Shown here piece by piece: positions 1 to 28,267 of a DNA stretch of 64,000 bases. The stretch spans positions 734,568-798,567 of the forward strand of contig CAZFGX010000001.1 in the NCBI GenBank assembly GCA_964518565.1, in the 5' to 3' direction. A program made the position numbers and the translations under genes. The stretch comes from an uncultured Gammaproteobacteria bacterium (GTDB taxonomy: Bacteria; Patescibacteriota; Microgenomatia; CAZETR01; Amesbacteraceae). Every line of letters starts with the position of its first letter. The stretch's first letter is position 1. The notes beneath the pieces were generated by a model. The model was given only the letters and a program-made list of their open reading frames with translations, ran no database searches and was not told the DNA's origin.

Positions 1-3000
1 ACTTCTTGGGATGTTAGTAGCACTGGTGTAGCTAGCGGTCTCACTGGTCTCACTTCATCTGGAACTATCACTTTTTCCGGACTCAGTAGTGCTGGCCTAG
101 TCACAAACACCTCCGGTGGTGTACTTGGCACCACTACTACTATCGGCGCTGCATATATCACCGCCGATTCCTTAGACTTCACTGAATTCAAAGACTCAAT
201 GGCCCTCGACGCCGCCCTCACCATAGCGCAGGGTACTAATACTTGGACTCAGACATTCACCGGTACGACTGGTCCTGCCATATCTCTGACCGCCTCTGGC
301 AATGTTTCTTCTGGTAATGCCTCTGCTTTGTATATCAATGCTTCAAATGCCTCATCCAGTGTCTCACCTGTCATGATTAGTAATAGCTCTGCTCAACCCA
401 GTATCTGGATCAACGACGATGGTACAGATGCCGACAGTACTCCATTTGTAGTTGATGCCTCTGGCAATGTCGGAATTGGCGATTCAACACCAGACAATGC
501 CTTAGATATTGCCGGCACCACAAATGGTATCTACGGTATTGATGTCACCAACTCCAGCAACGGCTCGGGTGCCGTAACCACAGCCAGCTTCACCAACGAT
601 GCTTCAGCTCAAGTGCTAGTCGGTATGGGTGGTTCCAACGCCATCGCCAATGTATTAGGTAGCCGAGCATTTATGCAAAGCAACTCTACTTCAAACGGTA
701 TCTCTCTAGTCGCAAATGGATCAGCCGACGACATTCGCTTCTTCACCGGTGGCCAAGCCACTACCAATGAAAAACTTAGAATCTCAGATCTTCCTGCCGC
801 AGGGGCTTCCGGAGACATCATTTCCTCCACCTACACCTTAAATGCCATGGATGGCTCAGACACTGTCAATGCCATGATTCTCAGCCTTACCAACCCCAAC
901 CACACCATTGGCTCAAATGTGCTAAATGGCATAAACATTGCTGGTATTACAGGTGACGCAGATGCTACTGAAAACGCCTTCCAAGTTGGAACCGGTTGGG
1001 ACAATGTCCTCTCATACAACAACACCGCCATCATCAATGGTTCAGGCATACTACAATCAGCCGCTCTCTCAGGAACATATTCAAATGCCCTAACGCTCTC
1101 CTCAACTTCAAACGCCTTCACTGGTACCATTGGTCAATCCACAGCCCTAGCCGGATCATTCACCACTCTATCCTCAACTGGAGCCACCACCTTGGGCAAC
1201 AATTCTTCCACAGTTGCTATCGACACCACTTCTTGGGATGTCAGTTCAGCTGGCGCCATCTCCGGACTCACTGGATTCACCCAAGCATCCGGAGCCTTTT
1301 CCTCCACTCTTAGTACTACAAATACTGCCACTTTCAATTCCACCACAGCCAATTCTGACTCTATCGGTATCAAGCCCCAAACCACCACAGCTACTAATTC
1401 TTTCACTGGCACCATCACTTCAGATGATCTGACTGCTGCTCGCACCTGGACTCTTCCAGATGCCACCGGTACCATCTGTGTCTCTGGCCAATCATGTGCT
1501 TTGACCGGTACCGTCACTTCATCAGGCAGTTCTCTAAACACCCAACTCGCCTACTTTACTAGCGACTCAAATATCACCGGTAGCAGCACCTACACATTTA
1601 GTCCCAGCCCCACAACTGGTGCTGGTTTAGCACTTACTGGTTCTGGAGTGACTTCCGGATCACTCTCTCGCTTCACTGGATCTGGCGCCACCATGACTAC
1701 CGGTGGTGAACTCCTAGACTTAGTCATGGGTGCCAACACAGTTGGTGCTGGCATGACAATTACTTCTACTGGTGTATATACCGGAACTGGCGCTGCCGAT
1801 GGTCTAATAAACGTCGTCGCCAATTCTCTTACCACCGGGCTCGGATCTCAATATTCCTACACCGGTCTTACATCTGGATCTGGTGAAAGAGTTACTGGAT
1901 CTGGCGCTACCATGACTACTGGTGGTGAACTTCTAGACTTAGTACTTGGTGCCAACACTGTCGGTGCCGGCATCACCGTTACCTCTTCTGGTACCTACAC
2001 TGGCACTGGATCAGCCGATGGACTCATCAATGTAGTTGCCAACTCTCTCACCACCGGCGATGGTTCAAAGATGTCCTTCACTGGTCTGACTTCTGGCACA
2101 GGTTTAGAAATCATCGGCGGTACATCAATGACTACCAACGGTGAATTAGTAGACTTAAATATGGGTGCCGCCACAGCTGGAAATGGTCTAAACATAAATA
2201 CTTCAGGCGTCTATACAGGTACTGGCCTAGCCGTTCTTACTGCAAACGCCATGACCACAGGCCAAGCCATGAGTATCTCCACTACCGGACTCACATCTGG
2301 ATCCGCTCAAAGAATCACCGGATCCGGAGCAACAATGACTACTGGCGGCGAATTAGTAGATTTAGTTCTAGGTGCCAACACAGTTGGCGCTGGTATGACC
2401 ATCACTTCCACGGGCGCCTACACAGGTGTCGGCACTGCTGACGGTTTAATAAACTTAACTGCCAATTCACTCACCACAGGATACGCTAGTCAAATATTTA
2501 CCAACGGCCTCACCACTGGTAGATCACTAAACATCAATTCCACATCAACAGCATTAACTACTGGTAGTCTTGGATATCTCGAATGGGCTCCTGGCTCCAG
2601 TACCACCGCCACATCTGCAGATCTTTTCCGCATCAACATTGGCACAAATGGTAATCTGTCATCAGGCAATTTATTCAATGTCACAGATGCCGGCACCACC
2701 CTCTTCTCTGTCAACGAATCTCAAGTTACTTCAGCTCTTCCACACCAATTCACCGCCTCAGGAGACGTATCTATCGCCTACGATCTCAATTTCACCAATC
2801 AAACTTCCAGCTTTATCAAATCCAATTCCTCACTCACTATCCAATCAGGTGAAAGTTTCGAATCAAACAATCTGACTCTACAAACCTATGGTTCTGGCCG
2901 AGTTGTCTTTGATGTCAACGGTACAGCCAACGGCGGCATCCTACTTTCAAATGCTCCTTCTTCCCAAACTCCCAAAGGCTTATTCATGGTCTCGGGAACT

Positions 3001-4434
3001 GCCACAAACAATGCGCTGGCCATCTTCAATGAAACTGGCAGTGCTGCCATTCTTACAGCTTCAAACTCTGGCACAACCGTCATGACCCTCACAAATGGTT
3101 CTGGTGCAGATCTTATTATCGGTGCCGATGGTACCAATACTGCCGCCAACATTAGCGGCAATGGTCTACTCGCTTATGGCGCCATCTGTGCCGACGACAC
3201 TCTAGACACAGCCGACGATTGTATCGACGCTTCCCGCACAGCCGGAACAGTGTATGGAATTTCTTCCAGCTTCACCATCGATGACGTTGGCGAAAACTTC
3301 CCCACACTCGACAACAACATTCAAGCCGGTGATGTCGTCAGTACAGATTATCAAAGCATTCCCAATGAACCAGCTGCTGAAAACTACGCTTACGAAACTG
3401 AATTCGTTAAAAAAGCTACAAACGGAGATACTTCAAAAGTCTTAGGCGTAATCTCCGAAAAACCTGGCGTACTTCTCGGTGGCTGGGGTCAGAAAAAAGA
3501 TCCACGCTCAGTCAAAGACGTGGCCATTGCCCTTTCTGGTCGTATTCCAGTTAAAATCTCTCAAAACTCAGCTCCTATTCAAGCCGGAGATTATCTGACC
3601 ACCAGTTCCGAACCTGGAAAAGCCCAAAAAGCCACCAAACCAGGCCATATGATTGGAAAAGCTTTAGATGCCTGGAATCCTAATAGCGGAAAAGACACTG
3701 TCCTATTCTTTGTCCAAAATGGTTGGGCGGATCCAACCAATTTCCTTGCTTTCGATGACAGTGGAAATCTTGTAGTGCCTGGTACAGTGACTGCTTCAGA
3801 ATTTGCTGCCAAAACAACAGATATCAACAATCAAACAATTCAAATTACCAATATCAAATCAGAATTAGATGTCCTAAAAGATCAAGTTGCTTCTATCTCT
3901 GCCGAACTAGCCAATCTCCAAACAAACAACGCCTCTTCTAGTGGTCTACCAATAGATCAAAACTGGGCAATTTCTACAGATTCTGGCCGACTAGTGACCA
4001 CTCTAGCCGTTCAAGTACCTCAGCTCTCAGTTACTGGCAGACTCAATGTCGGTACACTCGTCTTTGACGACATTCTCTCAGACATCACTTCATTAACAGG
4101 CGAAATTTCTCTCAACGGTGGCGTAGTCACGATCGACGATCAGGGTAATATCACCACCACTGGCACACTAGCCGCCAAAGAAATAACCACTGAAAAAGTA
4201 AATATCCTCGGTACGGCGACAGAAAGTGCCTCACTTGGCAAAGCAGTCATCCCCACTGGTACGACAGAATTCAGTATCGACACTACAGCGGTCTCCACTA
4301 GCTCATCAGTCTTTGTTACTCCAGAAATCCCAGTTGCCATCTCCGCAAGTGCCACAGAATCTGGTAAGTTTGTAGTTCGTATCCCCCAAATTCAACCTAC
4401 TGATGTCAAATTCAGCTGGTGGGTCATTAACTAA
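1..4434 (+). CDS. Giant Thr/Ser/Gly-rich repetitive surface protein (adhesin or fibre-like), 5'-truncated by the window edge. It has a C-terminal coiled-coil followed by a globular domain.
   Basis: Frame 1 is open from nt 1 with no stop before 4432-4434, so the ORF-track start at 199 is only the first in-window ATG. Composition is dominated by T/S/G/N. There are four ~73-aa tandem repeats (TGSGATMTTGGELLDLVxGANTVGAG...). A heptad-like segment ITNIKSELDVLKDQVASISAELANLQ lies near the C-terminus. Confidence 0.7.
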   Translation, partial: TSWDVSSTGVASGLTGLTSSGTITFSGLSSAGLVTNTSGGVLGTTTTIGAAYITADSLDFTEFKDSMALDAALTIAQGTNTWTQTFTGTTGPAISLTASGNVSSGNASALYINASNASSSVSPVMISNSSAQPSIWINDDGTDADSTPFVVDASGNVGIGDSTPDNALDIAGTTNGIYGIDVTNSSNGSGAVTTASFTNDASAQVLVGMGGSNAIANVLGSRAFMQSNSTSNGISLVANGSADDIRFFTGGQATTNEKLRISDLPAAGASGDIISSTYTLNAMDGSDTVNAMILSLTNPNHTIGSNVLNGINIAGITGDADATENAFQVGTGWDNVLSYNNTAIINGSGILQSAALSGTYSNALTLSSTSNAFTGTIGQSTALAGSFTTLSSTGATTLGNNSSTVAIDTTSWDVSSAGAISGLTGFTQASGAFSSTLSTTNTATFNSTTANSDSIGIKPQTTTATNSFTGTITSDDLTAARTWTLPDATGTICVSGQSCALTGTVTSSGSSLNTQLAYFTSDSNITGSSTYTFSPSPTTGAGLALTGSGVTSGSLSRFTGSGATMTTGGELLDLVMGANTVGAGMTITSTGVYTGTGAADGLINVVANSLTTGLGSQYSYTGLTSGSGERVTGSGATMTTGGELLDLVLGANTVGAGITVTSSGTYTGTGSADGLINVVANSLTTGDGSKMSFTGLTSGTGLEIIGGTSMTTNGELVDLNMGAATAGNGLNINTSGVYTGTGLAVLTANAMTTGQAMSISTTGLTSGSAQRITGSGATMTTGGELVDLVLGANTVGAGMTITSTGAYTGVGTADGLINLTANSLTTGYASQIFTNGLTTGRSLNINSTSTALTTGSLGYLEWAPGSSTTATSADLFRINIGTNGNLSSGNLFNVTDAGTTLFSVNESQVTSALPHQFTASGDVSIAYDLNFTNQTSSFIKSNSSLTIQSGESFESNNLTLQTYGSGRVVFDVNGTANGGILLSNAPSSQTPKGLFMVSGTATNNALAIFNETGSAAILTASNSGTTVMTLTNGSGADLIIGADGTNTAANISGNGLLAYGAICADDTLDTADDCIDASRTAGTVYGISSSFTIDDVGENFPTLDNNIQAGDVVSTDYQSIPNEPAAENYAYETEFVKKATNGDTSKVLGVISEKPGVLLGGWGQKKDPRSVKDVAIALSGRIPVKISQNSAPIQAGDYLTTSSEPGKAQKATKPGHMIGKALDAWNPNSGKDTVLFFVQNGWADPTNFLAFDDSGNLVVPGTVTASEFAAKTTDINNQTIQITNIKSELDVLKDQVASISAELANLQTNNASSSGLPIDQNWAISTDSGRLVTTLAVQVPQLSVTGRLNVGTLVFDDILSDITSLTGEISLNGGVVTIDDQGNITTTGTLAAKEITTEKVNILGTATESASLGKAVIPTGTTEFSIDTTAVSTSSSVFVTPEIPVAISASATESGKFVVRIPQIQPTDVKFSWWVIN
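1672..2540 (+). repeat. Four tandem coding repeats of ~219/219/204/225 nt inside the giant surface-protein gene
   Basis: Repeat unit F/VTGSGATMTTGGEL(L/V)DLV(M/L)GANTVGAG(M/I)T(I/V)TS(T/S)G.YTGTG.ADGLIN(V/L)(V/T)ANSLTTG recurs at nt 1672, 1891, ~2110 (diverged) and ~2314 in the translated frame. Confidence 0.8.
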
Positions 4435-4435
4435 C

Positions 4436-7400
4436 ATGCGTATCAAAAAACCCAAATTCACCAAGAAAAAATTCTTTAGTTTTATCAGCAGTTTATTTCT
4501 TTTTATCGGAATTGCGGCAGTCTTTATGCGGCTTACAGCACCGGCAATCGAAGCCGCTTGGTTCGATGATACGTATGCCTATCGTGTCAAACTCATTTTT
4601 ACCCACAATGCCACTATTGGTGACCCTCGAGCCGTGACTTACAGGCTCGATACCGCCGAACTCATTTCGGCCAACATGATGCAATCAGATTGTGATGATA
4701 TTCGGTTTACAGATGTAAATGGCAAATCATTACTCTATGACCTTACAGGCACTTGCAACAACGCCACCACTGCATTTGAAATAGTTTTTCCCAACATAGT
4801 AAACGGATCAAATATTGCCTATGCGTATTACGGCAGTCCAAATGCCGTGAACGGTGAAATCGACTCTACCCAATTTACAGCTCTCACCCCATCTGGAGGC
4901 GATCCATCAGACGAAACCGCACCCACCACCAATCAAGAAGTAGGCCCCGGCCCAATTCTGTATTGGAAATTTGATGAAAAAGTCGGCACTACTGCATATG
5001 ACAGCACCTTAAACAGAAACAACGGCACGGTTGATTCTGCTTCTTATTGGAAAACTCCAGATTTATGTGCCAGTGGTCCATGTATTTATTTCACCGGTGG
5101 CAACAATCGTGTTTCCAAAAGTTACAGTTCAGATACTGAACTTGATCCTGGCAGTGGCAGTATGACTATCTCAGCCTGGACAAAACGTTCAGCCACAGCT
5201 ACTGATACAGACTATATCGTTTCCCGCGAATCTACCGGTGGATACAACTTATATATGAACAGTAGCGGCAATCTGTGTTTTGAAATCAAATCCGGCGCCA
5301 ACACAGACACTGCCTGCTCCACCACAACCTATGTAGATTCTACTTGGCACTATATCACTGGAGTAAAAAATGCCACCACATCAATAACTCTCTATATAGA
5401 TGGCAAACAAATGGGTCAAGACGCATCAATATCCGCCACCGGTTCAATCAGCGGTTCGTCCCCTACATTTTCCGTTGGTAGAAATTCCGACGGCGTCACT
5501 ACAAATGAATGGGTAGGTTTTATAGATGAAGTCAAATACTACAATTACGCCAAATCCGCCACTCAAGTACTGAATGAATTTAGCACCAAAACTCAATCAA
5601 AAGGTACCAATGCATCTTTTGGCGATAGTAGCACTACAAATCTTTCCAGCAATGGCCTGATGGGCTATTGGAAAATGGATGAGTACACCTCAAATCTCTG
5701 TTCAGGCGGCGCAAATGATAGTTGTGACTCATCTGGAAACAGTAATGATGGTCTATGGAATGGCAATGTCGCCGCCGTCTCTGCCACCAAATATTTTTAC
5801 GGCACATCCTACGACGGTACTGGAGATTATGTTGGCACTTCAAACAATAATTCAGTCAAAGGTAAATCCCAAGTTTCGGTGTCTATGTGGATCTACCCCA
5901 CAACAGTCAATTCCGTCCAACGAGACATCTATGCCGAACCCATAAATGCCGATGATTCAAATCGTTTTGAGCTAATGCTAGATTCTGACAACGCTATGTA
6001 TTTTGGTGGCCGCAGCACCGACACCAACAGTTTTGAAGATTGGGCAGATGGCACTACTACTATTAGTGCAAATAATTGGTATCACATTGTCGCTATATAC
6101 GACGGTGTAACCGGTAAACACAAACTATATGTCAACAATATTCTCCAAGACTCTTTCTCGACCACCCCAAGAGCCTTTGACAACACAAATCCATTTGCAG
6201 TCCCAAGAATTGGCGCCAACACTCTCGGAACTACTGGATTCATAGGCCGAATCGACGAAGTCAAACTTTACAGCCGAGCCCTAAGTGCCAATGAAGTCAC
6301 CAATTTATACGATGTTGGACCTGGTCCAGTCGGATATTACAAACTCGATGAAGCCGGTGGCACTACTGTGACAGACAATGCCAGCGCAAATACAGGAGTT
6401 CTCACTTCTAGTCCTGTTTGGGTCACCGGCAAATACGGACAAGGTCTAAAATTTGACGGCAGTGCTTCGTATGTCCGTGGCGACTCCCCTTCTACAAACT
6501 TAGCCTTAGTAGAAAATGTCACTGTCTCTGCCTGGGTCTATCGCCGCGTCGCCGGGGCCAATCACACCGTCGTCGAATATGCTTCAAATGGTGAAACCGA
6601 AACCACCAACGAAGCCTACAGTTTATTAATCAACTCGACAAACAATCTGGAGCTAAATTGGGAACATAGCACAGGGACAAACGATAGCACTGTTTCCACC
6701 GCCACGCTAACGACCACCTCCGGCGCCTGGATTCATGTCGCCGCAGTACGAGATATAAACAACAACACCGTCAAATTTTACGAAAATGGCGTTCAGTTAG
6801 GCACTACGGTTTCATATACAAACGATCCATCTGGTTCAGACAGCTCGTCAAATCGTATAGATATCGGTCGAGATGCCAGCAATGGTACAAACTATTTTGA
6901 CGGCACGATAGATGATGTAAGAATTTATAACTACACGCTCACCCCCAAACAATTAGCCATTGAAATGAATGCCGACCATCCCACAGTTGGCACACCCGTC
7001 GGCGCATATATCTCCTATTGGCCATTTGATGAAGGACGGGGTACTACGGCCAATGACAAATCATTAAATGCCGACAATCTCACTCTTTCCACTTCATCCT
7101 GGACCAGCACTGGAAAATTTTTCAATGCCTGGAATGGCCTTGGTACAAACTACATCTCTCGGTCAAATGACAGTGATTACGATGTCGACACCAACAGTTT
7201 TTCAATTAGTTTTTGGTTCAAGTCAGACAACAGCGGCGGCTCAGGTACCCAGTACATAGTAAACCGTGCCTCGTCCACCATCGCCGGATTTGCCGTCTAT
7301 GGAAATTCTTCTGGAAACATTGTCTTTGGCGTGGACGACGACACCAGCTGGGGGCCAGATGCCATCGTCACCTCTTCCAGCAATTTATACAATCAAGCCT

Positions 7401-9070
7401 GGCATCACATTGTCGCCGTAAAAACCGATACTTCCAGATTAGACCTGTATGTCGACGGCAAGCTAAATGCCTCAACAACTACTGGTGTTCCCACTGGCTC
7501 TCTTTCAAACGACCTTACCTTATATATAGGTGATCGCGACGGTACAGACAATGGCGATGAAGCCTTGGTGGATCTTGATGAAGTCAAAATTTATTCTGGC
7601 GCCTTGTCTCTTCAAGATGTCCAAGTCGAATACAATCACGCTTCCCAAACCCAACTCGGATCGCTCTCCACCAGTTCAGATGGTGTCACCATAGCAAACG
7701 ATACTGCACGTGGATACTGTGTCCCTGGCGATACCTCTACATGCAACACCCCAGTCTTAGAATTACAAATGGATGAAAACTCAGGCACATCAGCATTTGA
7801 CACCTCCGGAAATGGCAACACCGGCACACTCACGTTAGGCCCCACCTGGACAGCAGGCAAATTAGGCCCAGCCGTAAGTTTCGACGGCTCAGACGACTAC
7901 ATCACCGTTACAGACGCCAACAGTTTAGATCTCACCACCAGCGGTTCAGCCATGGCCTGGGTACGTCGAACCAGCACAGGTACTTACGACACGATCCTAG
8001 GCAAAGGTGCAGCAAACGCTGCAGCATCCCACAATTACGCTATGGAATTTACCGATACAAACACAATGGATGTCATTGTCGGTGGTGGTGGTGTGAGTGG
8101 CCAAACTTGCAACGACGGTTCTACGACATTTACAGACACCACCAACTGGCATCACTATGCTATGACGTGGGACAATTCAAATATACGTTTCTATTACGAC
8201 GGTAAACAAGCATTCAGTTGTACTCAAACTGTAGCAGGCACGGCAAATACAGCAGCATTATTAATAGGAATGTTTGGCGGAAGTGTGGACAATCTCGCCG
8301 GACAAATAGACTCAGTCAAAGTCTACAATTACACTCGCAGCGCATCTCAAATATCCTGGGATTACAACCAAGGCAAATCAGTCGCATATTGGAAATTTGA
8401 TGAATGTCAGGGATCTACTCTCTATGATTCATCTGGTGGCGGCTACAATGGTACTTGGAATGGCGCTTCCAGCGGCACTCAAACATCAGTCGGCTCATGC
8501 AACACTTCAAGTACTGCCTGGGGCAATGGCGCTACTGGCAAATTCAGTTCATCACTAAACTTTGACGGTACAAACGACTATGTCGAAGTCGCAAATGCCG
8601 CAGCATTAAATTATGTTTCTAGACCATTTAGTATTTCTGTATGGCTCAATAAAGGTAGTTCATTTGGCTCAACCTTTGCCCGCGTAGTAGACAAAATTAG
8701 TGCCGGCACAGGAAATGGCTATGGAATAGATATGCACGACACAACCATTCGCATCTTGGGTAGCACCAGCGTTGGCTTTACCTACTCTACCTCATCCAGC
8801 ACCTGGTACCATCTCGTAGCCACATATGACGGATCAAGTACTGGTACTTTATATATAAATGGAAACTTAGTTAGTTCTGGCTCATATGCAGCAGCCAATG
8901 CCTACACCGGCACACTTCGTATCGGTGCCGCCAGCGACGCCACCTCACCATTTACCGGTAAAATTGATGAAGTACAAATATTCCCCTATGCACTCACCGC
9001 CAGACAAGTAAAAACCATTTACAACCAAAACTCTGCCATTCGCTTTGGTCCACAAACTGGTACACCCTAG
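4436..9070 (+). CDS. Giant secreted or membrane-anchored protein with an N-terminal TM/signal anchor and at least six concanavalin-A-like/LamG (LamG_3-type) lectin domains
   Basis: N-terminal hydrophobic helix FFSFISSLFLFIGIAAVFM. Six recurring jelly-roll C-terminal strands: IDEVKYYNYAKSATQV, IDEVKLYSRALSANEV, IDDVRIYNYTLTPKQL, LDEVKIYSGALSLQDV, IDSVKVYNYTRSASQI, IDEVQIFPYALTARQV. Start placed at the ATG at 4436 immediately after the upstream stop; the track start at 4403 would overlap by 32 nt. Confidence 0.75.
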   Translation: MRIKKPKFTKKKFFSFISSLFLFIGIAAVFMRLTAPAIEAAWFDDTYAYRVKLIFTHNATIGDPRAVTYRLDTAELISANMMQSDCDDIRFTDVNGKSLLYDLTGTCNNATTAFEIVFPNIVNGSNIAYAYYGSPNAVNGEIDSTQFTALTPSGGDPSDETAPTTNQEVGPGPILYWKFDEKVGTTAYDSTLNRNNGTVDSASYWKTPDLCASGPCIYFTGGNNRVSKSYSSDTELDPGSGSMTISAWTKRSATATDTDYIVSRESTGGYNLYMNSSGNLCFEIKSGANTDTACSTTTYVDSTWHYITGVKNATTSITLYIDGKQMGQDASISATGSISGSSPTFSVGRNSDGVTTNEWVGFIDEVKYYNYAKSATQVLNEFSTKTQSKGTNASFGDSSTTNLSSNGLMGYWKMDEYTSNLCSGGANDSCDSSGNSNDGLWNGNVAAVSATKYFYGTSYDGTGDYVGTSNNNSVKGKSQVSVSMWIYPTTVNSVQRDIYAEPINADDSNRFELMLDSDNAMYFGGRSTDTNSFEDWADGTTTISANNWYHIVAIYDGVTGKHKLYVNNILQDSFSTTPRAFDNTNPFAVPRIGANTLGTTGFIGRIDEVKLYSRALSANEVTNLYDVGPGPVGYYKLDEAGGTTVTDNASANTGVLTSSPVWVTGKYGQGLKFDGSASYVRGDSPSTNLALVENVTVSAWVYRRVAGANHTVVEYASNGETETTNEAYSLLINSTNNLELNWEHSTGTNDSTVSTATLTTTSGAWIHVAAVRDINNNTVKFYENGVQLGTTVSYTNDPSGSDSSSNRIDIGRDASNGTNYFDGTIDDVRIYNYTLTPKQLAIEMNADHPTVGTPVGAYISYWPFDEGRGTTANDKSLNADNLTLSTSSWTSTGKFFNAWNGLGTNYISRSNDSDYDVDTNSFSISFWFKSDNSGGSGTQYIVNRASSTIAGFAVYGNSSGNIVFGVDDDTSWGPDAIVTSSSNLYNQAWHHIVAVKTDTSRLDLYVDGKLNASTTTGVPTGSLSNDLTLYIGDRDGTDNGDEALVDLDEVKIYSGALSLQDVQVEYNHASQTQLGSLSTSSDGVTIANDTARGYCVPGDTSTCNTPVLELQMDENSGTSAFDTSGNGNTGTLTLGPTWTAGKLGPAVSFDGSDDYITVTDANSLDLTTSGSAMAWVRRTSTGTYDTILGKGAANAAASHNYAMEFTDTNTMDVIVGGGGVSGQTCNDGSTTFTDTTNWHHYAMTWDNSNIRFYYDGKQAFSCTQTVAGTANTAALLIGMFGGSVDNLAGQIDSVKVYNYTRSASQISWDYNQGKSVAYWKFDECQGSTLYDSSGGGYNGTWNGASSGTQTSVGSCNTSSTAWGNGATGKFSSSLNFDGTNDYVEVANAAALNYVSRPFSISVWLNKGSSFGSTFARVVDKISAGTGNGYGIDMHDTTIRILGSTSVGFTYSTSSSTWYHLVATYDGSSTGTLYINGNLVSSGSYAAANAYTGTLRIGAASDATSPFTGKIDEVQIFPYALTARQVKTIYNQNSAIRFGPQTGTP

Positions 9071-9122
9071 CTAGCTTATACCCCTTGACTCAAATAGATC
9101 AAAGTAATAATCTGTACATCAG

Positions 9123-9320
9123 ATGACATCAGCAAATCTTTCCGAACTTCCAGACCTTCTCACTGTCAAAGAAGTCGCTGCTGTCTTACGAGTTTCAGTT
9201 CTTACAGTCAAACGCTGGGGCAAACGCGGTAAGCTCGTCCCTATCCGTATCAACTCCCGCGGCGATCGTCGCTACAAAAAAGAAGCCGTCCAATGGCTTC
9301 TCGGAATAACTCCTAAATAG
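9123..9320 (+). CDS. Small helix-turn-helix DNA-binding protein of the excisionase/MerR-like (HTH_17) family
   Basis: LTVKEVAAVLRVSVLTVKRWGKRGKLVPIRI matches the excisionase-family HTH signature. 65 aa. Confidence 0.6.
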   Translation: MTSANLSELPDLLTVKEVAAVLRVSVLTVKRWGKRGKLVPIRINSRGDRRYKKEAVQWLLGITPK

Positions 9321-10023
9321 CAAACTCCTGAATCTTATCTCCTACCCGCACCATATAGTTCCCCTTGGTCAAATCCAATATTTTTCCAATATATCCATTA
9401 TCTCCCACTCCTGTCATTGGTAACTGTTGCCACTCACTCGCACCAACTGATTTATATTCCACTAGATCCACCTTCTGTCGACTTACCACCGTTACCAAAA
9501 CAGAACGAGAATCTATAGGCAAAACAGAAATACTAAATATTTCAGACTTTGCCCCCACCTGGGTATTCTGAGACCGAGAAGCCAATTTCATACTTACCCA
9601 CAATCCACCCAATAGAAAAACAGCCACAAAGCTCAAAAATAATACCCGCGGCGCACTAGCAGGTTTTGATCCCGCTGCTCCATCACTAATCTTTTGTACA
9701 AACAGCCCATCTCCTCCATACCAACGTTTTCCACAGCGCACACAATATCGTACTTCAATAGTCACTGGCACATCTTCGCCCACATATCGCTGCAACATCA
9801 TTCCATCTTGAGGACACACACCAGTACCCCCCTTTAACCATAAGGAATCGATTTTTACTCGCCTCATGGCAACGAGCGCATGGGGATCGATCTCAGAAAA
9901 TGTATGCGCATCAGCCCAAAATCCCCCACAATGAAAACATCTGTACAAAAATTTTCCATCGATTTGTATATCGGACAATCGCGAACCACAATCAGGGCAT
10001 TTCATCTTGTTTAGTATACTCAA
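9313..10023 (-). CDS. Membrane protein with two N-terminal zf-TFIIB-like zinc ribbons, one TM helix and a C-terminal extracytoplasmic domain (paralog A)
   Basis: MKCPDCGSRL...YRCFHCGGFWAD and CPQDG...CVRCGKRWYGGD fit the CPxCG...CxxCGG(F/I)W(L/A)D pattern. Hydrophobic segment VLFLSFVAVFLLGGLWV. Confidence 0.55.
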   Translation of the reverse strand: MSILNKMKCPDCGSRLSDIQIDGKFLYRCFHCGGFWADAHTFSEIDPHALVAMRRVKIDSLWLKGGTGVCPQDGMMLQRYVGEDVPVTIEVRYCVRCGKRWYGGDGLFVQKISDGAAGSKPASAPRVLFLSFVAVFLLGGLWVSMKLASRSQNTQVGAKSEIFSISVLPIDSRSVLVTVVSRQKVDLVEYKSVGASEWQQLPMTGVGDNGYIGKILDLTKGNYMVRVGDKIQEFAI

Positions 10024-10744
10024 TAACTAGTGGGTATTCCCGCTCAAATATCTTATAAATATAGTTTCCTGGGGTAAGTTTTCTCAAACTCGCTCGATAC
10101 CGCCGACCATCAAATTGAACCGGAACTGTAGAATAGTTCAGTTGGCCTGCAGGACGATACAAAATATTCGACACTGGCATACTGGAAGCAAAAACAATAT
10201 CTACATCTCCCTGACCAATAAACACAATAGCAATCCCCGACGCCTCACTACTCGCAGAAATTCCCACCCGCTGTGGCAGCTGTACCAATACGATTGATGT
10301 TGCCACCGCCCCAATGACAAAAATCAAACTTAAGGCCGGCAACGCTACCTTTTTCAATCCATCCTTATTCCATTGCAAGGTATACTCACGCTTAGCTTTC
10401 ATTGCTTCATAAAAAGTGAACAATGAATTGTGCGGAAACCACCAATTTCTACACGCATCACATACACCTGCCACAAATCCCTCTGGCACTAGCTCACGAT
10501 GTGGCGAGTTTAAAATCCAGCCATCGGTAGGACACGCATTAGTCCCTCCAGCAGGACTTTCGCCAGCATGTTCTTTTACTTCCAAACTCTTTCCTTCTGC
10601 CAACGCATTGACCACCCAATTTGGCACCCAAAATCCTCCACATCGAGCACAACGAAAAGACTCATCAATTCCTATGACAGAAACAGTTTGCAGCTCCGCC
10701 GCACACCCCGGACACAACATATAAAAATAGTATAGCTTAACCAA
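9992..10744 (-). CDS. Membrane protein with two zf-TFIIB-like zinc ribbons, a TM helix and a C-terminal domain (paralog B of 9313..10023)
   Basis: CPGCAAEL...FRCARCGGFWVPNW and CPTDG...CDACRNWWFP. TM helix VALPALSLIFVIGAVATSIVLV. Same architecture and similar length as the downstream paralog, overlapping it by 32 nt. Confidence 0.55.
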   Translation of the reverse strand: MVKLYYFYMLCPGCAAELQTVSVIGIDESFRCARCGGFWVPNWVVNALAEGKSLEVKEHAGESPAGGTNACPTDGWILNSPHRELVPEGFVAGVCDACRNWWFPHNSLFTFYEAMKAKREYTLQWNKDGLKKVALPALSLIFVIGAVATSIVLVQLPQRVGISASSEASGIAIVFIGQGDVDIVFASSMPVSNILYRPAGQLNYSTVPVQFDGRRYRASLRKLTPGNYIYKIFEREYPLVIEYTKQDEMP

Positions 10745-10964
10745 AAGTTGACAACCAACCCAAAAAGGATTAATACTTAATGTATGGCATACAATGACAC
10801 ACTAGACAAAATAGACGCCGAACTAAAAAAACAAATCAAGCAACAATCTGAAGGCAATCTCTCAGGTAGTGATGAAAGACGACGTGATCGTGAAGAAGCG
10901 GCCGAAGAACGAAAGAAAAATAACCCGTCTTCAGCCGAAGGTTCTGGAATGGCCAGATAATTTT

Positions 10965-12200
10965 TTACGCTACTCTCTCCTTCAACGCTGAATAAAACTT
11001 CTCCAAATATACTTTTGCCTTTGTCCAATTATTCTCTTTCATTTCCATATTTGCCATATAAGCCAAATGTGCCGATTTCGTCGCTTGAAATTCTGAAAAC
11101 CGAAACTTTTCAGCTATCAACTGCTTCTGACCTTCTTCACTCTGGTTTTGCCACAAATTAATCTCAAAATTAGCTACAATCTCCGGCTCAAAGGCCAGGC
11201 CCACATTTCGCTTAATCAGCTCATACAATCCCACCAGGGCCTTCTTCGCCCCTTCCCATTCATCAGCCTTTCGATGGGCCAATGCACTTACCAAATGAAT
11301 ACCCGCCTCTTTTGCCAGATCTTTAGATAAGCCATATTGCTCTTTCAAATAGTTAATCGCTTCATCTTTCAAAGATCCAGCATCTCCAATTGCCAGAGCC
11401 CGTTGCCATTTTATTTCCAAATCCGCCACTACCTCAGGATTAAATCTCATATGCTCTACTGCATCATTTCCTCCAAATCTTCGTCTGCGCCGAGAATAAT
11501 CTACTACCGCCTCTACCAATTTTTCCGGAGTAAAATCCGGCAAATGATCTTGCTCCCAATAAAACTCTGCATACGCCATCTGCAAAGGCAGGAGTCCCGA
11601 TGTCCGCTGTTCTCCCGATGTCCGAATAAACAAATCTACATATGGATATGGTTGATCAGCCGTATCCAAATAGCTCTCAAATACTTTTTCATTTATGGGA
11701 GTCGTATCGGCATTAGCCAATTTTGATTCCAAAATTTTATTTGTCGCCCGCACGATTTCATCTTTGCCACCATAATCCAGCGCAATATTGAGTAAATAAT
11801 TTGTGTAGTGAGCAGATTCCGACTCCAATCGGCGAATCTCTGACACCACATCAGCTGGAAAACGATCCTTTCGCCCCAAATGCACCAATCGCATTTTTTC
11901 TTGATGCAAATCCTTTTCAATATCTTTCAAAGCCAGGCGCAAAATATGCACGATTTCATCGACCTCGGCCTGTGGCCTTTCCCAATTCTCTGTGGAAAAC
12001 GCCCAAATAGTAAATGTATGAATTCCCAGTTCGCGCACTGCATATCCCAAGCGTTTTATGGCCTGATATCCAGCCTTATGCCCTTCCCAAGGCTGCAAAC
12101 CCCGAGCCCGTGCCCAGCGCCTATTGCCATCCAAAATCATGGCAATATGGTTTGGCAAATTAGTGCCTGGAGGCAAGTTAATACGTTCTTTCTTTTTCAT
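10965..12200 (-). CDS. uppS: Undecaprenyl-diphosphate synthase (cis-prenyltransferase) with a ~170-aa C-terminal extension of unknown function
   Basis: N-terminus HIAMILDGNRRWA...FTIWAFSTENWERP is the UPPS signature. The protein is 411 aa, whereas a typical UPPS is ~240 aa. Confidence 0.8.
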   Translation of the reverse strand: MKKKERINLPPGTNLPNHIAMILDGNRRWARARGLQPWEGHKAGYQAIKRLGYAVRELGIHTFTIWAFSTENWERPQAEVDEIVHILRLALKDIEKDLHQEKMRLVHLGRKDRFPADVVSEIRRLESESAHYTNYLLNIALDYGGKDEIVRATNKILESKLANADTTPINEKVFESYLDTADQPYPYVDLFIRTSGEQRTSGLLPLQMAYAEFYWEQDHLPDFTPEKLVEAVVDYSRRRRRFGGNDAVEHMRFNPEVVADLEIKWQRALAIGDAGSLKDEAINYLKEQYGLSKDLAKEAGIHLVSALAHRKADEWEGAKKALVGLYELIKRNVGLAFEPEIVANFEINLWQNQSEEGQKQLIAEKFRFSEFQATKSAHLAYMANMEMKENNWTKAKVYLEKFYSALKERVA

Positions 12201-12220: not shown

Positions 12221-13003
12221 GTGTCGTATTATCATACAATGCCAGATCGCCAACCATCTAGTCATAAGTTTTCCCGACGTACACTCTTCCGTTTTGCTGG
12301 AGCTGCCAGTATGGAACATTTTTTCGGCGAAATCCCCTCTGTCGCTTGGGCTGAAACCGACAAAACTCCAGAATCAGTCAGAAAATTTATTGAAACAATC
12401 GTCATCAACCCACCCTTAATTGGCACAAATCAAAATGCTGGCAAAAATCTGGACTTTGGCAAAGGCTGGGCCACATTTCATTTAGATGAAAACTCCCCCA
12501 TCATGCAAACAGTAATAAACAATCGCCTCAAAAGCATCCAAAATCACCCGACAATCTCAAAAGAAGACCAAAATATTCTCCAACTCAAAGACCACAAATT
12601 GACAGAATTCATCGTCGAAAAACAATCCCATCTCTCAATTGCAGAAGCTTTAGCCAGTAAAAAATATCTTGGCGCAGTTGCTACCCGCGGAACTCACGAC
12701 ATTGGCCAAGAATATGTCGTATTCACTCAAAAAACCTCCACTGCACCAATAGAATTTACCGGTATCGCCTTATGTGTCGACAATTCCGGCGATGCCAAAA
12801 ATTTATACAAGCCGTACAAACTAGACGGCTGGAACAAAGCTGGCTACAAAAACACTCCTCTGGAATGGATGTTAGACGCCTCCGCCAATCTAATAAAAAA
12901 TCTTCCTCTTGGCCGTGCGCCATCCTCTGACTATCTTATGAGCGGCCGACCAGGAGTAATCGTTATCAGTCGACCTGTTTACGACAATTTAGTCAGCAAT
13001 TGA
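12221..13003 (+). CDS. Hypothetical secreted protein with a twin-arginine (Tat)-like signal peptide
   Basis: SRRTLFRFAGAAS...SVAWA contains an RR-x-(L)F motif, a hydrophobic core and an AxA cleavage site. No recognisable catalytic motif. Confidence 0.45.
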   Translation: MSYYHTMPDRQPSSHKFSRRTLFRFAGAASMEHFFGEIPSVAWAETDKTPESVRKFIETIVINPPLIGTNQNAGKNLDFGKGWATFHLDENSPIMQTVINNRLKSIQNHPTISKEDQNILQLKDHKLTEFIVEKQSHLSIAEALASKKYLGAVATRGTHDIGQEYVVFTQKTSTAPIEFTGIALCVDNSGDAKNLYKPYKLDGWNKAGYKNTPLEWMLDASANLIKNLPLGRAPSSDYLMSGRPGVIVISRPVYDNLVSN

Positions 13004-14178
13004 TCCAAACTCAACCGTTCTACTTGCTCACTCAAACGCTTTTTATATTCTACATCCTCACCATTTTTTGCCGACACCACAATCCTATGTGGCATACCCA
13101 GTAGATCTGCATCAGCTAATTTTTCTCCAGCTGATCTATCAGTATCATCCCACAATACCGACACGCCTCGATCCACCAGTGTCTCATATACCACTTTTGC
13201 TCGCTCACTTGCCCGAATATCTACCAACTGAACTCGAAACGGAGCGACAGCTTCTGGCCAGATTATTCCTCGATCGTCATGAAATACTTCTACCAACGTC
13301 CCCATCAGTCGAGTAGTCCCAATACCATAGCTACCAAACCAAATCGGTTTTTTAGTTCCATCAGCATCAGTAAACAGTCCACCCATCTTTTCTGCATACA
13401 TCGTTCCAAGTGGGAAAATATTTCCGACTTCTATTGACCGAATAACTTCGTAATCTTTTTCATTTCCCTCAAACACTTCTTTGTTATAGCCCTCATGAGT
13501 TCCAGGCTTTATATAAATAGTATCTTCACCTGCTTCAGCCGCTACTTGAAATTCGTGAGTATGTTTATTAGTAAACACCCCACCAGAAGCTTCAGTCACA
13601 TAGACATGTAACCCAATACGTTCAAAAATTTTCAAATATGCTTGCTTATATTTCTCATACCACATCATCAAATCTTCTTCAGAAGTATGCATAGTGTATG
13701 CATCCTTCATCAAAAATTCTCGTCCTCGCAATATCCCCCCCTGAGATCGCAATTCATTTCGAAACTTTGTGGAAAAATGATAGACAGACAAAGGCAAGTC
13801 TTTATAAGATTGAATAAATTTTGTCATCAAGTGCATGACAATTTCTTCATGCGTAAATGACAAAGCAAACTCTTTATCTCGAGTATCTTTTAACTTATAC
13901 ATCACCTCATCTGCACTCTCCCATCTTCCAGTTTGATTCCAGATTTCTTTTGGATGCAGCAAAGGCATCAACATTTCTTGAGCCCCAATAGTATTTAATT
14001 CTTCTCGAATAATCTGCGAAATATTTTGCACCACCTTCCACCCCAACGGTAACAAAGTCCACGACCCCGCCATCAATTGATCAATAAATCCAGCCCGAAC
14101 CAACAATTTATGATTCGTCGTCATCGCATCTTTCGGTGCTTCTCGCAGTGTTTTAGGAAAAACTTGGGAATATTTCAT
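12979..14178 (-). CDS. proS: Prolyl-tRNA synthetase, minimal form lacking the INS editing domain
   Basis: N-terminus MKYSQVFPKTLREAPKDA..HKLLVRAGFI is typical of bacterial ProRS. Class II core motifs follow, then a C-terminal anticodon-binding region. Only 399 aa. Confidence 0.85.
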   Translation of the reverse strand: MKYSQVFPKTLREAPKDAMTTNHKLLVRAGFIDQLMAGSWTLLPLGWKVVQNISQIIREELNTIGAQEMLMPLLHPKEIWNQTGRWESADEVMYKLKDTRDKEFALSFTHEEIVMHLMTKFIQSYKDLPLSVYHFSTKFRNELRSQGGILRGREFLMKDAYTMHTSEEDLMMWYEKYKQAYLKIFERIGLHVYVTEASGGVFTNKHTHEFQVAAEAGEDTIYIKPGTHEGYNKEVFEGNEKDYEVIRSIEVGNIFPLGTMYAEKMGGLFTDADGTKKPIWFGSYGIGTTRLMGTLVEVFHDDRGIIWPEAVAPFRVQLVDIRASERAKVVYETLVDRGVSVLWDDTDRSAGEKLADADLLGMPHRIVVSAKNGEDVEYKKRLSEQVERLSLDQLLTKLS

Positions 14179-19469: not shown

Positions 19470-20213
19470 ATGAAAGAAACAGATATTCTCTCAGCAGCAA
19501 AATGGTTAAAAGGTCACGATATAAATCTTATAGCATTCGACGTAGACGATACTCTTCTGGATACATCCAAACACATACGTACTCATACCAATGCTTGGGT
19601 AAAAAATACTGCCGAGCAAATAGGTATTCCTGAAATAGAGCTTCATGCCCAATTTACTGAATATGGCCGTCAAGCCTTCCAAAACCCAGAGGTTCATGTC
19701 AAGCAAATTCGTTGGCAAATAATCTGTGATCAGCTAGCCAAGCATTTCGACCGTCCATCTTCCCAATTTGATCATAGGCCTATCTTAAAATTTTATGACT
19801 CCGCCCCAGACATCTATCCCGAAACCCGTTCCACTCTCGAATCACTAAGAAGTCACGGCCTCCATACCTTGGCCATTACACACTCACAGCCACATTGGCA
19901 TCAAATCAAGATGTCCCAACACAACCTCAGTCATTTGTTTGATTATCATGCCATTATTAACCCAGAACATGCCATCACAAAAACCAGTACACATTGGCGA
20001 GATGCAATAACCAGCCTGGGTAGTAAACCTGAAAAAACTTTAGCCGTAGGAGATGGCATCAAACCTGACATTCTCGCTTCATTGGCCGCAGGAGTAATTC
20101 ATGTAGTCCATATCACGCCCAAATGGGATATGTATAAACAAGGTGAAGTTCCAAAATCAGTTCATCAAATAGACGATATAGCCCAACTCATTCCCCTCCT
20201 CGCCCAACTCTAA
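19470..20213 (+). CDS. HAD-superfamily hydrolase
   Basis: Motif I LIAFDVDDTLLDT (DxDxT). Motif IV region LAVGDGIKPDI. Confidence 0.7.
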   Translation: MKETDILSAAKWLKGHDINLIAFDVDDTLLDTSKHIRTHTNAWVKNTAEQIGIPEIELHAQFTEYGRQAFQNPEVHVKQIRWQIICDQLAKHFDRPSSQFDHRPILKFYDSAPDIYPETRSTLESLRSHGLHTLAITHSQPHWHQIKMSQHNLSHLFDYHAIINPEHAITKTSTHWRDAITSLGSKPEKTLAVGDGIKPDILASLAAGVIHVVHITPKWDMYKQGEVPKSVHQIDDIAQLIPLLAQL

Positions 20214-21066
20214 TACGCCATTCTTGTCCATCTGCTATTACCTCCACGTCTCCACTTTTATCAGTTCTATATATATGCATACCTCGCTGTTGCAACAATT
20301 CAAGCGCTTCGGGTGCCGGGTGACCATATCGGTTTCCTTTTCCGCTCGAAATTATGGCAACTTTTGGCTGAAGTATATCCAACCAATCAGGCAACATTCC
20401 AGTTCGGCTCCCATGATGTGGCACTTTCAATACCTCCACTGGCACCAATTTCCCAGTTTGCATCTGCATCGGCTCCACGGGGATATCGGCATCAGCCGTT
20501 AACAACATATCAAAACTGCCGTACTGTATTCTGCCCACGACACCAAAACCATTCAAATCTGTGCCGTCACTCATCCCTTCCTTCATATGTCCTTCCACCC
20601 ACTCTCTACTCGGCCAAACGATTTCATATTTCACTCCAGCAAATTGGATCCGTTGTCCCGTAAATAAATTCACCGGCTCCAAATGCTGCTGTTGCAACAC
20701 CTGTCGCAAAGCCAAATACGCCACCGTATTATTTTTCTCTGGCCCGGCAAAAAATCTACTCACTCGATATCTATCCAGCACATGAATCAATCCAGCAAAA
20801 TGGTCAGACTGCGGATGAGTCATTACCATCATCTCAATCGTTCTATCAAAAAATGGTATATGGTCAGACAAGCAACCTAATACCCGATCATCTGGACCAC
20901 CGTCTACCAACAATTGCACAAACCCTCGACTTACCAATATCGCATCCCCTTGTCCCACATCACAAACCACTACATGTACCCGGTCATCTGGCCACACCCA
21001 CCATATACAAATCCCCAAAACCAAAATCAAACTCGCCAATATTAAAAGCGTTTTTTTATAAGCCAT
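20188..21066 (-). CDS. comEC: ComEC/Rec2 C-terminal metallo-beta-lactamase domain protein (3' half of a split comEC)
   Basis: VVCDVGQGDAILV and THPQSDH (HxHxDH) are the ComEC MBL signatures. Preceded by a single TM helix. Confidence 0.7.
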   Translation of the reverse strand: MAYKKTLLILASLILVLGICIWWVWPDDRVHVVVCDVGQGDAILVSRGFVQLLVDGGPDDRVLGCLSDHIPFFDRTIEMMVMTHPQSDHFAGLIHVLDRYRVSRFFAGPEKNNTVAYLALRQVLQQQHLEPVNLFTGQRIQFAGVKYEIVWPSREWVEGHMKEGMSDGTDLNGFGVVGRIQYGSFDMLLTADADIPVEPMQMQTGKLVPVEVLKVPHHGSRTGMLPDWLDILQPKVAIISSGKGNRYGHPAPEALELLQQRGMHIYRTDKSGDVEVIADGQEWRIRVGRGGE

Positions 21067-22238: not shown

Positions 22239-22807
22239 AAAGTATCGATCTGTTGTTTTATTTGGTCAAAAACTTTTTGTCCCAGGACTTTCTTTTCCAC
22301 CAATTCTTCAATACGCGAATATGGCCTATTTGAAATAATTTTTTCAGCAGTAGAAACACCGACTCCATTCAAATCCTCTAGCTCACTCGCAGAAGCGGAA
22401 TTAATATGCACCATTCGACTTGCTTTTTTCCCAACAGAGACTTGAGTAGCGTCAGACTTTTTTGGAATATACAACTTTATTCCATCTTTAAGTTTCTCAG
22501 TTTTGTTCAAGACTCTATCGATCCAATCTGCATCCACCTCATCAGAAAATCCACCCGCCGCTTCAATAGCATCACCCACTCTGTCCCCATAATGGAAATG
22601 GTACACACCAGGATTTTTTACTGCGCCAGATACATCCACCAAAACATTTCCAACCTCTGTATTAGTGTCGCTAGATTCCCCTAGGACTTGTATCTCAGAT
22701 TCAGCTTGTCCGCCACCTGCACCACTCCAAACTAAAAGCACTCCAACCACCAAAAACAAAATCCCTACTCCACCAATAGCATATACTGCTATTCTTCTAC
22801 GATTCAT
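22235..22807 (-). CDS. comEA: Competence protein ComEA (SLBB domain + helix-hairpin-helix DNA-binding domain)
   Basis: N-terminal TM. VDVSGAVKNPGVYHF (SLBB). INSASASELEDLNGVGVSTAEKIISNR (HhH). 4-nt overlap with the comEC start. Confidence 0.75.
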   Translation of the reverse strand: MNRRRIAVYAIGGVGILFLVVGVLLVWSGAGGGQAESEIQVLGESSDTNTEVGNVLVDVSGAVKNPGVYHFHYGDRVGDAIEAAGGFSDEVDADWIDRVLNKTEKLKDGIKLYIPKKSDATQVSVGKKASRMVHINSASASELEDLNGVGVSTAEKIISNRPYSRIEELVEKKVLGQKVFDQIKQQIDTL

Positions 22808-28196: not shown

Positions 28197-28267
28197 GGGC
28201 CATTAGCATAGTAGTAGTGCGCCGCATTCGCATTGCGGATACGGGGGTGCGATCCCCCCATGGTCCA
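28197..28267 (+). tRNA. tRNA-Ala (anticodon CGC)
   Basis: Hand-folded cloverleaf. Acceptor GGGCCAT/ATGGTCC with G3:U70. D-stem GCAT/GTGC. Anticodon stem CCGCA/TGCGG with loop TTCGCAT. T-arm GGGGG-TGCGATC-CCCCC. Discriminator A. CCA not encoded. Confidence 0.75.

Follow-up and report, generated by a model that had tools for sequence, protein, structure and literature searches.

The first 9,070 nucleotides (nt) of the analyzed window, a 64,000-nt stretch of contig CAZFGX010000001.1 from a member of the Patescibacteria, encode two consecutive giant genes on the plus strand, gene 1 for a long fibre protein and gene 2 for a protein with repeated LamG modules, as an earlier reading made from the letters alone (the sequence-only reading) had proposed. 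No stop interrupts frame 1 of the plus strand between nt 1 and the TAA at 4432–4434, so gene 1 is cut by the window edge and is already in progress where the window begins. An extension was recovered in the Logan contig L001 (SRR29476910, 10,342 bp), which was found by an exact-product look-up of gene 2 and is 100% identical to window positions 1–9120 over 9120 nt. The contig adds 1222 nt upstream and brings gene 1 to at least 1884 amino acids (aa), still truncated at its 5' end. Thr, Ser and Gly together make up 41% of this known 1884-aa part, in agreement with the Thr/Ser/Gly-rich composition described before. For gene 2, the version on record in L001 starts at ATG 4436, and an exact look-up of the product starting at ATG 4403 returned no record. 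ATG 4436 is therefore taken as the most likely start, which leaves a spacer of 1 nt behind the stop of gene 1, and no promoter-like site was found at the junction. The features of the locus are listed in Table 1.

Table 1. Features of the fibre-LamG locus, with window coordinates and gene 1 residues counted from the window edge
Feature	Coordinates	Strand	Basis
Gene 1, 3' part (1477 codons and stop), giant Thr/Ser/Gly-rich fibre protein	1..4434	+	open frame; L001 extension; homologues; composition
Long-range 283-nt repeat in gene 1, second copy	963..1245	+	first copy at -264..18, for the most part before the window edge
Four tandem units of about 73 aa (73, 73, 68, 73)	1672..2532	+	protein and gapless DNA matches
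Units R1 to R4	R1 1672-1890; R2 1891-2109; R3 2110-2313 (68 aa); R4 2314-2532	+	
Conserved module of about 165 aa, aa 819-985 (…STSTALTTG…W-PGS-TTAT-DL…GDVSIAYD…TNQT…)	2455..2955	+	identity to relatives
phi29-gp12-type (Peptidase_G2-like) intramolecular chaperone domain, aa 1092-1244	3274..3732	+	AF2, Foldseek, profile
Putative autocleavage motif D1095-V-G-E1098	3283..3294	+	profile alignment
44-residue helix, aa 1265-1308, heptad a/d = I,I,L,V,L / Q,I,L,I,L	3793..3924	+	AF2 helix residues 186-229; sequence
C-terminal beta domain ending F-x-W-W-V-I-N	4099..4431	+	AF2 strands residues 288-398
Gene 2, 1544 aa: N-terminal hydrophobic anchor/signal, DUF2341-like domain, six LamG modules	4436..9070	+	Pfam, motif, hydropathy; exact product in L001
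Hydrophobic segment of gene 2 (FFSFISSLFLFIGIAAVFM) behind a Lys-rich start	4472..4528	+	Kyte-Doolittle
DUF2341-like N-terminal domain of gene 2	4688..4855	+	borderline Pfam match
Six LamG (concanavalin-A-like) modules: 4961-5578, 5666-6307, 6335-6964, 7016-7630, 7760-8362, 8387-9019	4961..9019	+	
Terminator-like hairpin between gene 2 and the Zn-ribbon gene convergent to it, 9313-10023 (-)	9280..9302	-	

Scanned whole, the 1477 aa of gene 1 in the window gave no match in Pfam (at E ≤ 0.1), NCBIfam, PHROGs, or PDB sequences. The C-terminal part, aa 1080–1477, was modeled with AlphaFold2 (AF2) from an alignment of 16 homologues (A1) at a mean predicted local distance difference test (pLDDT) score of 75.6, and the model comprises a beta domain, a helix, and a confidently predicted terminal beta domain. 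The first beta domain, with pLDDT mostly 85 to 95 and one low-confidence loop (model residues 42 to 52), has the fold of the intramolecular chaperone of the phage phi29 tailspike gp12. In Foldseek searches of the PDB, it matched the pre-mature phi29 gp12 tailspike (3suc, E = 4.6e-4) and the released C-terminal autochaperone (3gqh_A, E = 1.4e-3, TMt 0.54), and among the viral models of BFVD it matched those named preneck appendage protein (E = 1e-9, TMt 0.60). The family profile built from A1 matched 3gqh_A among the PDB sequences (E = 5.3e-7), and also the chaperon domain of another tailspike (28nb_A, D4 of the tailspike protein Dpo31; E = 1.1e-4). In the profile alignment, the motif D-l-a-E-y-f falls on residues 1 to 6 (DFAEYF) of the released phi29 gp12 fragment, whose residue 1 is taken to be the cleavage site; of 83 distinct family domains, 72 have its D and 72 its E.

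The sequence-only reading had suggested that gene 1 be compared with peptidase_S74 models. No Peptidase_S74 (PF13884) match was found in gene 1 by Pfam, and the G2-type chaperone domain occupies the place where paralogous relatives carry S74, followed in them by the same coiled coil and C-terminal domain. The heptad coiled coil and globular C-terminal domain announced in that reading were both recovered, the former as a helix of five heptads with a clean a/d pattern and folded beta domains on either side, probably a trimeric coiled coil. The terminal beta domain was predicted with pLDDT 86 to 96 for model residues 334 to 398 and is conserved in relatives behind both G2-type and S74-type chaperone domains. 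Its hidden Markov model (HMM), "cterm," matches 56 open reading frames (ORFs) in related loci, and Pfam K1-lyase_C (PF24146) matches the terminal domain in 6 of 17 relatives and also in the homologue P0028 (residues 988 to 1040). Of the trimeric-fibre-like layout proposed earlier, the tail-fibre comparison thus stood, with the gp12 fold and profile matches, and the autotransporter comparison fell, there being no YadA-type anchor or other Pfam domain in the visible part of gene 1.

In gene 2, Laminin_G_3 (PF13385) was matched in six stretches with E = 3.6e-141 (465.9 bits against a cutoff of 27.6). The modules begin with a YWKFDE-like stretch and end in the strand [IL]D[EDS]V[KRQ][IVLY][YF], of which exactly six matches were found, so the earlier count of at least six modules with such an end strand was borne out; among themselves the six modules are 23 to 35% identical. 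The N-terminal anchor noted before was recovered as a single hydrophobic segment, with a Kyte-Doolittle 19-residue maximum of 2.36 at residue 13, and would act as a signal anchor or a Sec signal peptide, judging from its sequence. Between this segment and the LamG modules, DUF2341 (PF10102) gave a borderline match below its cutoff (20.7 against 23.4 bits, E = 5.6e-4). The NCBIfam model for TafC (NF052521) matched gene 2 in five stretches with E = 8.1e-56. An assignment to TafC was rejected, the score of 189.7 lying below the cutoff of 410, and the match is put down to the LamG domains; no twin-arginine (RR) motif was seen by eye in the N terminus MRIKKPKFTKKK. The LamG modules are also the route by which gene 2 matches PHROG families of "virion structural protein."

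The pairing of the two genes was followed in genomes and metagenomes. A genome scan returned seven related loci, and in all five of those with downstream DNA, one or two giant ORFs carrying five to eight LamG modules came after the fibre ORF in the same orientation. A metagenome scan with the conserved 165-aa module of gene 1 returned 155 relatives, of which 80 were fetched; the module scans used the tighter alignment A3, because the sequences in A1 and A2 diverged too far for pattern scans. Pooled genome and metagenome loci were kept if the fibre ORF ended inside the locus and at least 2.5 kb of downstream DNA was present (n = 51). A multi-LamG ORF lay downstream of the fibre on the same strand in 41 of these loci (about 80%), directly adjacent in 28 and within 3 kb past a small ORF in 13, and in 10 there was none. 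After de-replication at 90% identity, the pair was kept in 34 of 43 lineages. A LamG ORF just upstream of the fibre was seen in only 3 of 18 loci (Fisher P = 2.6e-6). The N-terminal part of gene 2 (aa 1 to 179, nt 4436 to 4972, anchor and DUF2341-like domain), used as a query, was 29 to 66% identical to 34 downstream ORFs, mostly the LamG partners. The window shows the arrangement that defines the cassette: downstream of a fibre ORF containing the 165-aa module, and on its strand, lies an ORF with a transmembrane (TM) segment, a DUF2341-like domain, and multiple LamG modules. By these sequence comparisons, the pair is conserved across diverse lineages of the candidate phyla radiation (CPR).

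Between the fibre and LamG genes of about 10 related loci lies an ORF of some 200 aa that carries the motif AARSGKQNIAEGS (for example, L014 3652–4284, L020 6749–7351, L034 8518–9129, L042 5287–5886, L060 3459–4136, and L065 2803–3426). By motif alone, it resembles a four-helix-bundle protein of the 23S-rRNA-intervening-sequence type. It is absent from the window and was rejected as a third component of the cassette, being probably an insertion.

The 165-aa module is the most conserved part of the gene 1 family, with 45 to 63% identity to segments of many relatives, in which it occurs in up to about five copies per fibre. No Pfam model matches it in gene 1, and it represents an unannotated family. 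A profile search of 1.84 billion cluster representatives returned 542 proteins at E ≤ 1e-3, 280 of them at E ≤ 1e-30; many of the module-containing proteins are very large, up to 6172 aa. The 62 database homologues of gene 1 measure 0.9 to 2.5 thousand aa, and those with a named source belong to Patescibacteria with one exception, Vitreimonas. Many carry a C-terminal Peptidase_S74 and one a Peptidase_G2 domain, and some relatives are named "tail fiber domain-containing protein" by NCBI. Their similarity to gene 1 is a mosaic, module by module.

Collagen triple-helix repeats were seen in some members of this family and beside it. They occur in the homologue P0061, within the N-terminal 300 aa of a fibre that has the conserved module (L003, 5615–6514), and in a giant ORF with a MerR/helix-turn-helix (HTH) N terminus beside a module-containing fibre ORF (L002, 5182–9876; Pfam Collagen, E = 2.3e-101). 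Together with the heptad helix, these repeats hint at a trimeric state, those in L002 and L003 being consistent with trimeric fibres. Another related fibre ORF, L017 766–1665, starts with an intein C-terminal splicing motif (Pfam Intein_splicing, E = 1.4e-9).

The interpretation we favor, with moderate confidence, is that the locus is a conserved, co-transcribed surface cassette of Patescibacteria in which a trimeric fibre and a six-LamG partner make up a glycan-binding attachment apparatus. Gene 1 would encode a very long Thr/Ser/Gly-rich fibre assembled in the manner of phage tail fibres or tailspikes. The C-terminal gp12-type chaperone, followed by the coiled coil and the small beta domain, would nucleate trimerization, and cleavage at D1095 would then probably remove the chaperone region. 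An N-terminal segment outside the window probably anchors the fibre in the cytoplasmic membrane. The gene 2 product would be membrane-anchored or secreted and would display the DUF2341-like domain and six divergent LamG lectin-type modules. The fibre and the LamG protein would most likely act jointly as a glycan-binding surface apparatus for attachment to a partner cell or a substrate. The 1-nt spacer and the junction without a promoter-like site speak for coupling of the two genes, and the N-terminal hydrophobic segments of gene 2 and of gene 1 relatives speak for a surface location. The host-attachment role guessed in the sequence-only reading seems reasonable on this analysis, and its anatomy of the locus was right except in the age that it gave the repeats, treated below; its call for a structure prediction of the C terminus was answered by the chaperone, helix, and terminal beta domain described above.

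Several observations weigh against this interpretation. The Peptidase_G2 match of Pfam (PF11962) on the C-terminal 398 aa is below threshold (16.7 against a 25-bit cutoff, E = 0.0052); among relatives, the model passes in 4 of 17, at best with 9.4e-9. The chaperone domain is not the extreme C terminus, as about 230 conserved residues of coiled coil and beta domain lie beyond it, so that discarding everything after D1095 would be odd. The AF2 monomer model of aa 545 to 1110 reached a pLDDT of 49.8 and was unusable, and no beta-helix or triple helix is therefore claimed for the shaft or for the fold of the repeats. No LamG partner was detectable in the 10 of 51 related loci mentioned above, two of which (L037 and L078) carry a gene-2-like N-terminal domain on a downstream ORF. 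A LamG domain may also be part of an enzyme or have a structural function. The N terminus of gene 1 lies beyond the window and beyond both Logan contigs, the full-length protein did not come up in either of two protein searches, and the anchoring of gene 1 is deduced from the sequences of relatives only. Finally, the evidence for the cassette comes from genes and predicted structures.

The N termini of the relatives bear on the anchoring and also give rise to the best-placed alternative. Of 22 gene 1 relatives with a complete N terminus, nine begin with a MerR/HTH_17 domain and seven with a Phage_int_SAM-like domain, so that a DNA-binding-type domain is present in 16. One strong hydrophobic TM-like segment was found in 18 of the 22, at about residues 80 to 280 (in one at residue 11). 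The fibre ORF 5' ends concerned include those of L003, L007, L018, L022, L024, L028, L033, L035, L039, L040, L044, L045, L051, L053, L056, L070, L073, L082, L087, and L089. An N-terminal TM segment is likewise present in 41 of 61 database homologues, and the same layout of HTH or SAM domain and TM segment in P0013 to P0018, P0022, P0033, P0037, P0041, and P0054; other homologues have only a short tail and a TM segment. From the TM segments, the family would be anchored N-terminally with its C terminus outside, and most members appear by sequence to have a cytoplasmic DNA-binding-type domain as well.

Gene 1 may accordingly be read as a contact-sensing or DNA-linked device, with a cytoplasmic DNA-binding domain, one TM segment, and the fibre as the sensor arm of a one-component regulator or as a nucleoid-envelope tether, adhesion being only part of its role. 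The domain counts just given speak for this, and a precedent exists in MyRF, a membrane transcription factor whose trimerization and cleavage depend on a phage-type chaperone (PMC8326128). The N terminus of gene 1 is not in the window, however, and some relatives have only the short tail and TM segment. Moreover, with the chaperone at the distal, extracellular end of the fibre, a cut there cannot free the DNA-binding domain in the way it does in MyRF. The proposal is drawn from domain architecture, and it adds to the attachment reading rather than excluding it. We consider it unlikely for the gene in the window, albeit the first of the alternatives. Equally tentative is its wider form, in which such proteins would constitute an undescribed class of giant single-pass proteins with a cytoplasmic DNA-binding domain of the MerR/excisionase HTH or integrase SAM-like type, an extracellular chaperone-folded fibre, and a multi-lectin partner, relaying contact with the host to the chromosome or tethering the nucleoid at the attachment site.

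Second in rank and somewhat less probable again is polysaccharide processing, in which the fibre would be a tailspike-like depolymerase and the LamG modules its carbohydrate-binding modules, used in nutrient acquisition or in breaching the host envelope. The closest structural relatives of the chaperone domain, phi29 gp12 and the Dpo31 chaperon domain D4, do come from tailspikes with enzymatic shafts, the C-terminal domain of the relatives matches that of the K1 capsule lyase, and the homologue P0046 has Beta_helix/NosD domains. Concanavalin-A-like domains in phages of Patescibacteria have been read as glycoside-hydrolase-associated (PMC12911398). Against this, neither the visible part of gene 1 nor gene 2 yielded a catalytic domain or a match to an enzyme family of Pfam. 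The matches obtained concern chaperone and C-terminal domains instead of catalytic beta-helices, and the shaft model is the low-confidence one mentioned above.

A third possibility, that the pair is a tail fibre and a LamG "virion structural protein" of an integrated phage, would account for the phage-type chaperone domain, the PHROG matches of gene 2, and the tail fiber names of relatives. It is largely refuted by the surroundings. The rest of the window encodes uppS, ProRS, TyrRS, LeuRS, MurA, MurC, Rho, RadA, PyrG, and similar genes, and the relatives of gene 1 adjoin LeuRS and ComEC. Among the neighbors examined, both those in the window and those of relatives, no phage genes were seen; the stretch upstream of gene 1 lies outside the view. 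Gene 1 itself had no PHROG match, and a pattern scan of IMG/VR confirmed no relative of the conserved module. The N-terminal TM anchors and HTH domains of relatives are unlike virion fibres, and the pair spans diverse CPR lineages. From the housekeeping and ComEC neighbors and the lack of a confirmed relative in IMG/VR, the window is read as chromosomal, cellular Patescibacteria DNA, and a prophage origin as very improbable. The named relatives of the window LeuRS all belong to CPR lineages (WWE3 at 58%), which fits the small-genome bacterial origin assumed in the sequence-only reading.

The weakest explanation, that the 219-nt units of gene 1 are a recent hotspot of expansion or contraction and possibly a misassembled or collapsed array, draws on the strictly tandem, in-frame arrangement of the units and on their copy number of one to five among distant relatives, and it can be set aside as excluded on the following evidence. 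Four tandem units were confirmed, one of them of 68 aa, yet the near-identity attributed to them earlier did not hold. Pairwise identity among the four is 50 to 81% in protein, 56 to 75% in DNA, and 32 to 50% at the third codon position; in pairs among R1, R2, and R4, 28 to 38 of 52 to 59 conserved residues are encoded by different codons. Tandem Repeats Finder reported nothing in window positions 1 to 12000, and the independent Logan assembly is base-identical across the stretch with the same four units. Given this third-codon divergence, the silence of Tandem Repeats Finder, and the identical independent assembly, assembly collapse at 1672–2540 is not a realistic risk, and the units are ancient and held by selection on the protein rather than recently expanded. 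Both short-read assemblies break 1.2 kb upstream of the window and not at the units. A copy-number comparison with the unit HMM gave one to five copies in relatives (P0224 at least three, P0274 four plus one, P0195 two, and P0235 one). In gene 1, P0224, and P0274, a unit copy directly precedes the conserved 165-aa module.

The 219-nt tandem family is the only repeat of at least 60 nt across the 64-kb window. Across the window edge, the 283-nt long-range repeat of gene 1 (L001 958–1240 and 2185–2467) has copies spaced 1227 nt apart with 79% nucleotide identity; at the protein level, similarity extends over about 160 aa with 51 to 88% identity. A diversity-generating retroelement target was considered for the locus and rejected, as the 64-kb window contains no pair of template and variable repeats. 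Further upstream, two short-read assemblies from different runs (L001 at its nt 1, and SRR16481186_339774) end at the identical base, window position -1221, inside gene 1. The shared end suggests a repeat or a strain-variable stretch further 5' in gene 1.

Downstream of gene 2 and convergent to it, two paralogous genes on the minus strand (9313–10023 and 9992–10744) encode proteins with an N-terminal Zn-ribbon, which by eye also show a hydrophobic segment and a C-terminal domain. Homologues of the Zn-ribbon proteins sit downstream of the LamG gene in L056/L058 and L032. Farther along the minus strand of the window, at 20188–25197, LeuRS is followed by ComEA/ComEC-type competence genes, and two related contigs have LeuRS and ComEC immediately before the fibre genes (L002 1–4809 and L003 1–5099). 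The prolyl-tRNA synthetase ProRS (12979–14178, minus strand) has 399 aa only; bacterial ProRS models match it in two stretches, which suggests a ProRS without the inserted editing domain. Two tRNA genes were found on the plus strand at 28197–28267 and 28606–28676, and one Logan contig ends inside the first. The GC skew of the plus strand is strongly negative throughout window positions 1–64000, with a mean of -0.26 and a range of -0.11 to -0.36. By gene strand, it is -0.20 for plus-strand genes (-0.23 without genes 1 and 2) and -0.33 for minus-strand genes, a strand-wide asymmetry of unusual size.

How ultrasmall Patescibacteria recognize and hold their partners is largely unknown beyond type IV pili, and the locus offers a concrete and recurrent two-gene unit for such a role, in which one gene reuses the folding device of phage tail fibres and the other is a dedicated six-lectin partner. 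Single proteins among the relatives unite a giant fibre with a TM segment and a DNA-binding domain; if functional, this would be a new coupling of cell contact to gene control, and interest in the locus would be higher if this architecture holds for gene 1 and proves functional. For annotation, the "tail fiber domain-containing" proteins of these genomes are cellular, and the internal repeats of gene 1 are stable and not assembly hazards.

Among known systems, the trimeric autotransporter adhesins (YadA/Hia) are comparable to the gene 1 product, a long fibre with repeats that is probably trimeric, includes a coiled coil, and has an assembly domain at its C terminus. In contrast to them, the visible part of gene 1 has no YadA anchor and no head or stalk Pfam domain, its C terminus is a soluble-looking beta domain, and the relatives are anchored by an N-terminal TM segment with the C terminus outside, the reverse of autotransporters. 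TafC, a subunit of haloarchaeal Tat-fimbriae (NF052521; PMC11821415), resembles gene 2 in its LamG-type content through a partial match, whereas gene 2 scores far below the TafC cutoff, shows no twin-arginine motif in its N-terminal sequence, and comes from a bacterium; the similarity is at the level of domains only. MyRF (PMC8326128) resembles the relatives of gene 1 in combining a DNA-binding domain, a TM segment, and a phage-type chaperone/autocleavage domain in one polypeptide. In MyRF, the S74-type domain and the DNA-binding domain share one side of the membrane, and cleavage frees the factor, whereas the chaperone of the gene 1 relatives is at the far extracellular end and the N terminus of the window gene is outside the view.

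The closest parallel for the assembly device is the pre-neck appendage gp12 of phage phi29 (PF11962; 3suc/3gqh). The tailspikes phi29 gp12 and K1F need C-terminal chaperone domains for trimer folding and then lose them (PMC3357383). Gene 1 shares with gp12 the beta-domain fold of about 150 aa, the profile match to 3gqh_A, the D-x-x-E at the start of the released fragment, and the position of the chaperone domain downstream of a long, putatively fibrous region. The gene 1 product differs in being cellular and probably membrane-anchored, in its size of at least 1884 aa against 854, in its subthreshold Pfam score, and in having a coiled coil and a conserved beta domain behind the chaperone in place of the protein end. 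In the endosialidase/K1F-type fibres with S74 (PF13884) and in T5 pb1, a C-terminal chaperone likewise drives trimer folding and is then removed (PMC3357383, PMC4690869). The same chaperone logic would apply here, and S74 is found in paralogous relatives, although not in gene 1 itself.

For the cellular setting, the nearest comparison is with giant concanavalin-A surface proteins of Patescibacteria. In Absconditicoccaceae, surface proteins of very large size that combine concanavalin-A with fibronectin and integrin-type domains have been described (PMC13059738), and "concanavalins (lectins)" are listed as typical CPR surface equipment (PMC12911398); the literature regards giant surface proteins with concanavalin-A domains as candidate attachment factors (PMC13059738, PMC12911398). 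The locus agrees with such proteins in phylum, size class, TM or signal targeting, concanavalin-A/LamG content, and proposed role in host attachment. A limited literature check, not a full review, found no prior description of the fibre-LamG pair, the phage-type chaperone, the 165-aa module, or the DNA-binding N termini and HTH-fibre fusions in this context. To the view of giant concanavalin-A-domain surface proteins, the locus adds the pairing of a fibre with a LamG protein, an assembly device of phage type, and the family of the 165-aa module.

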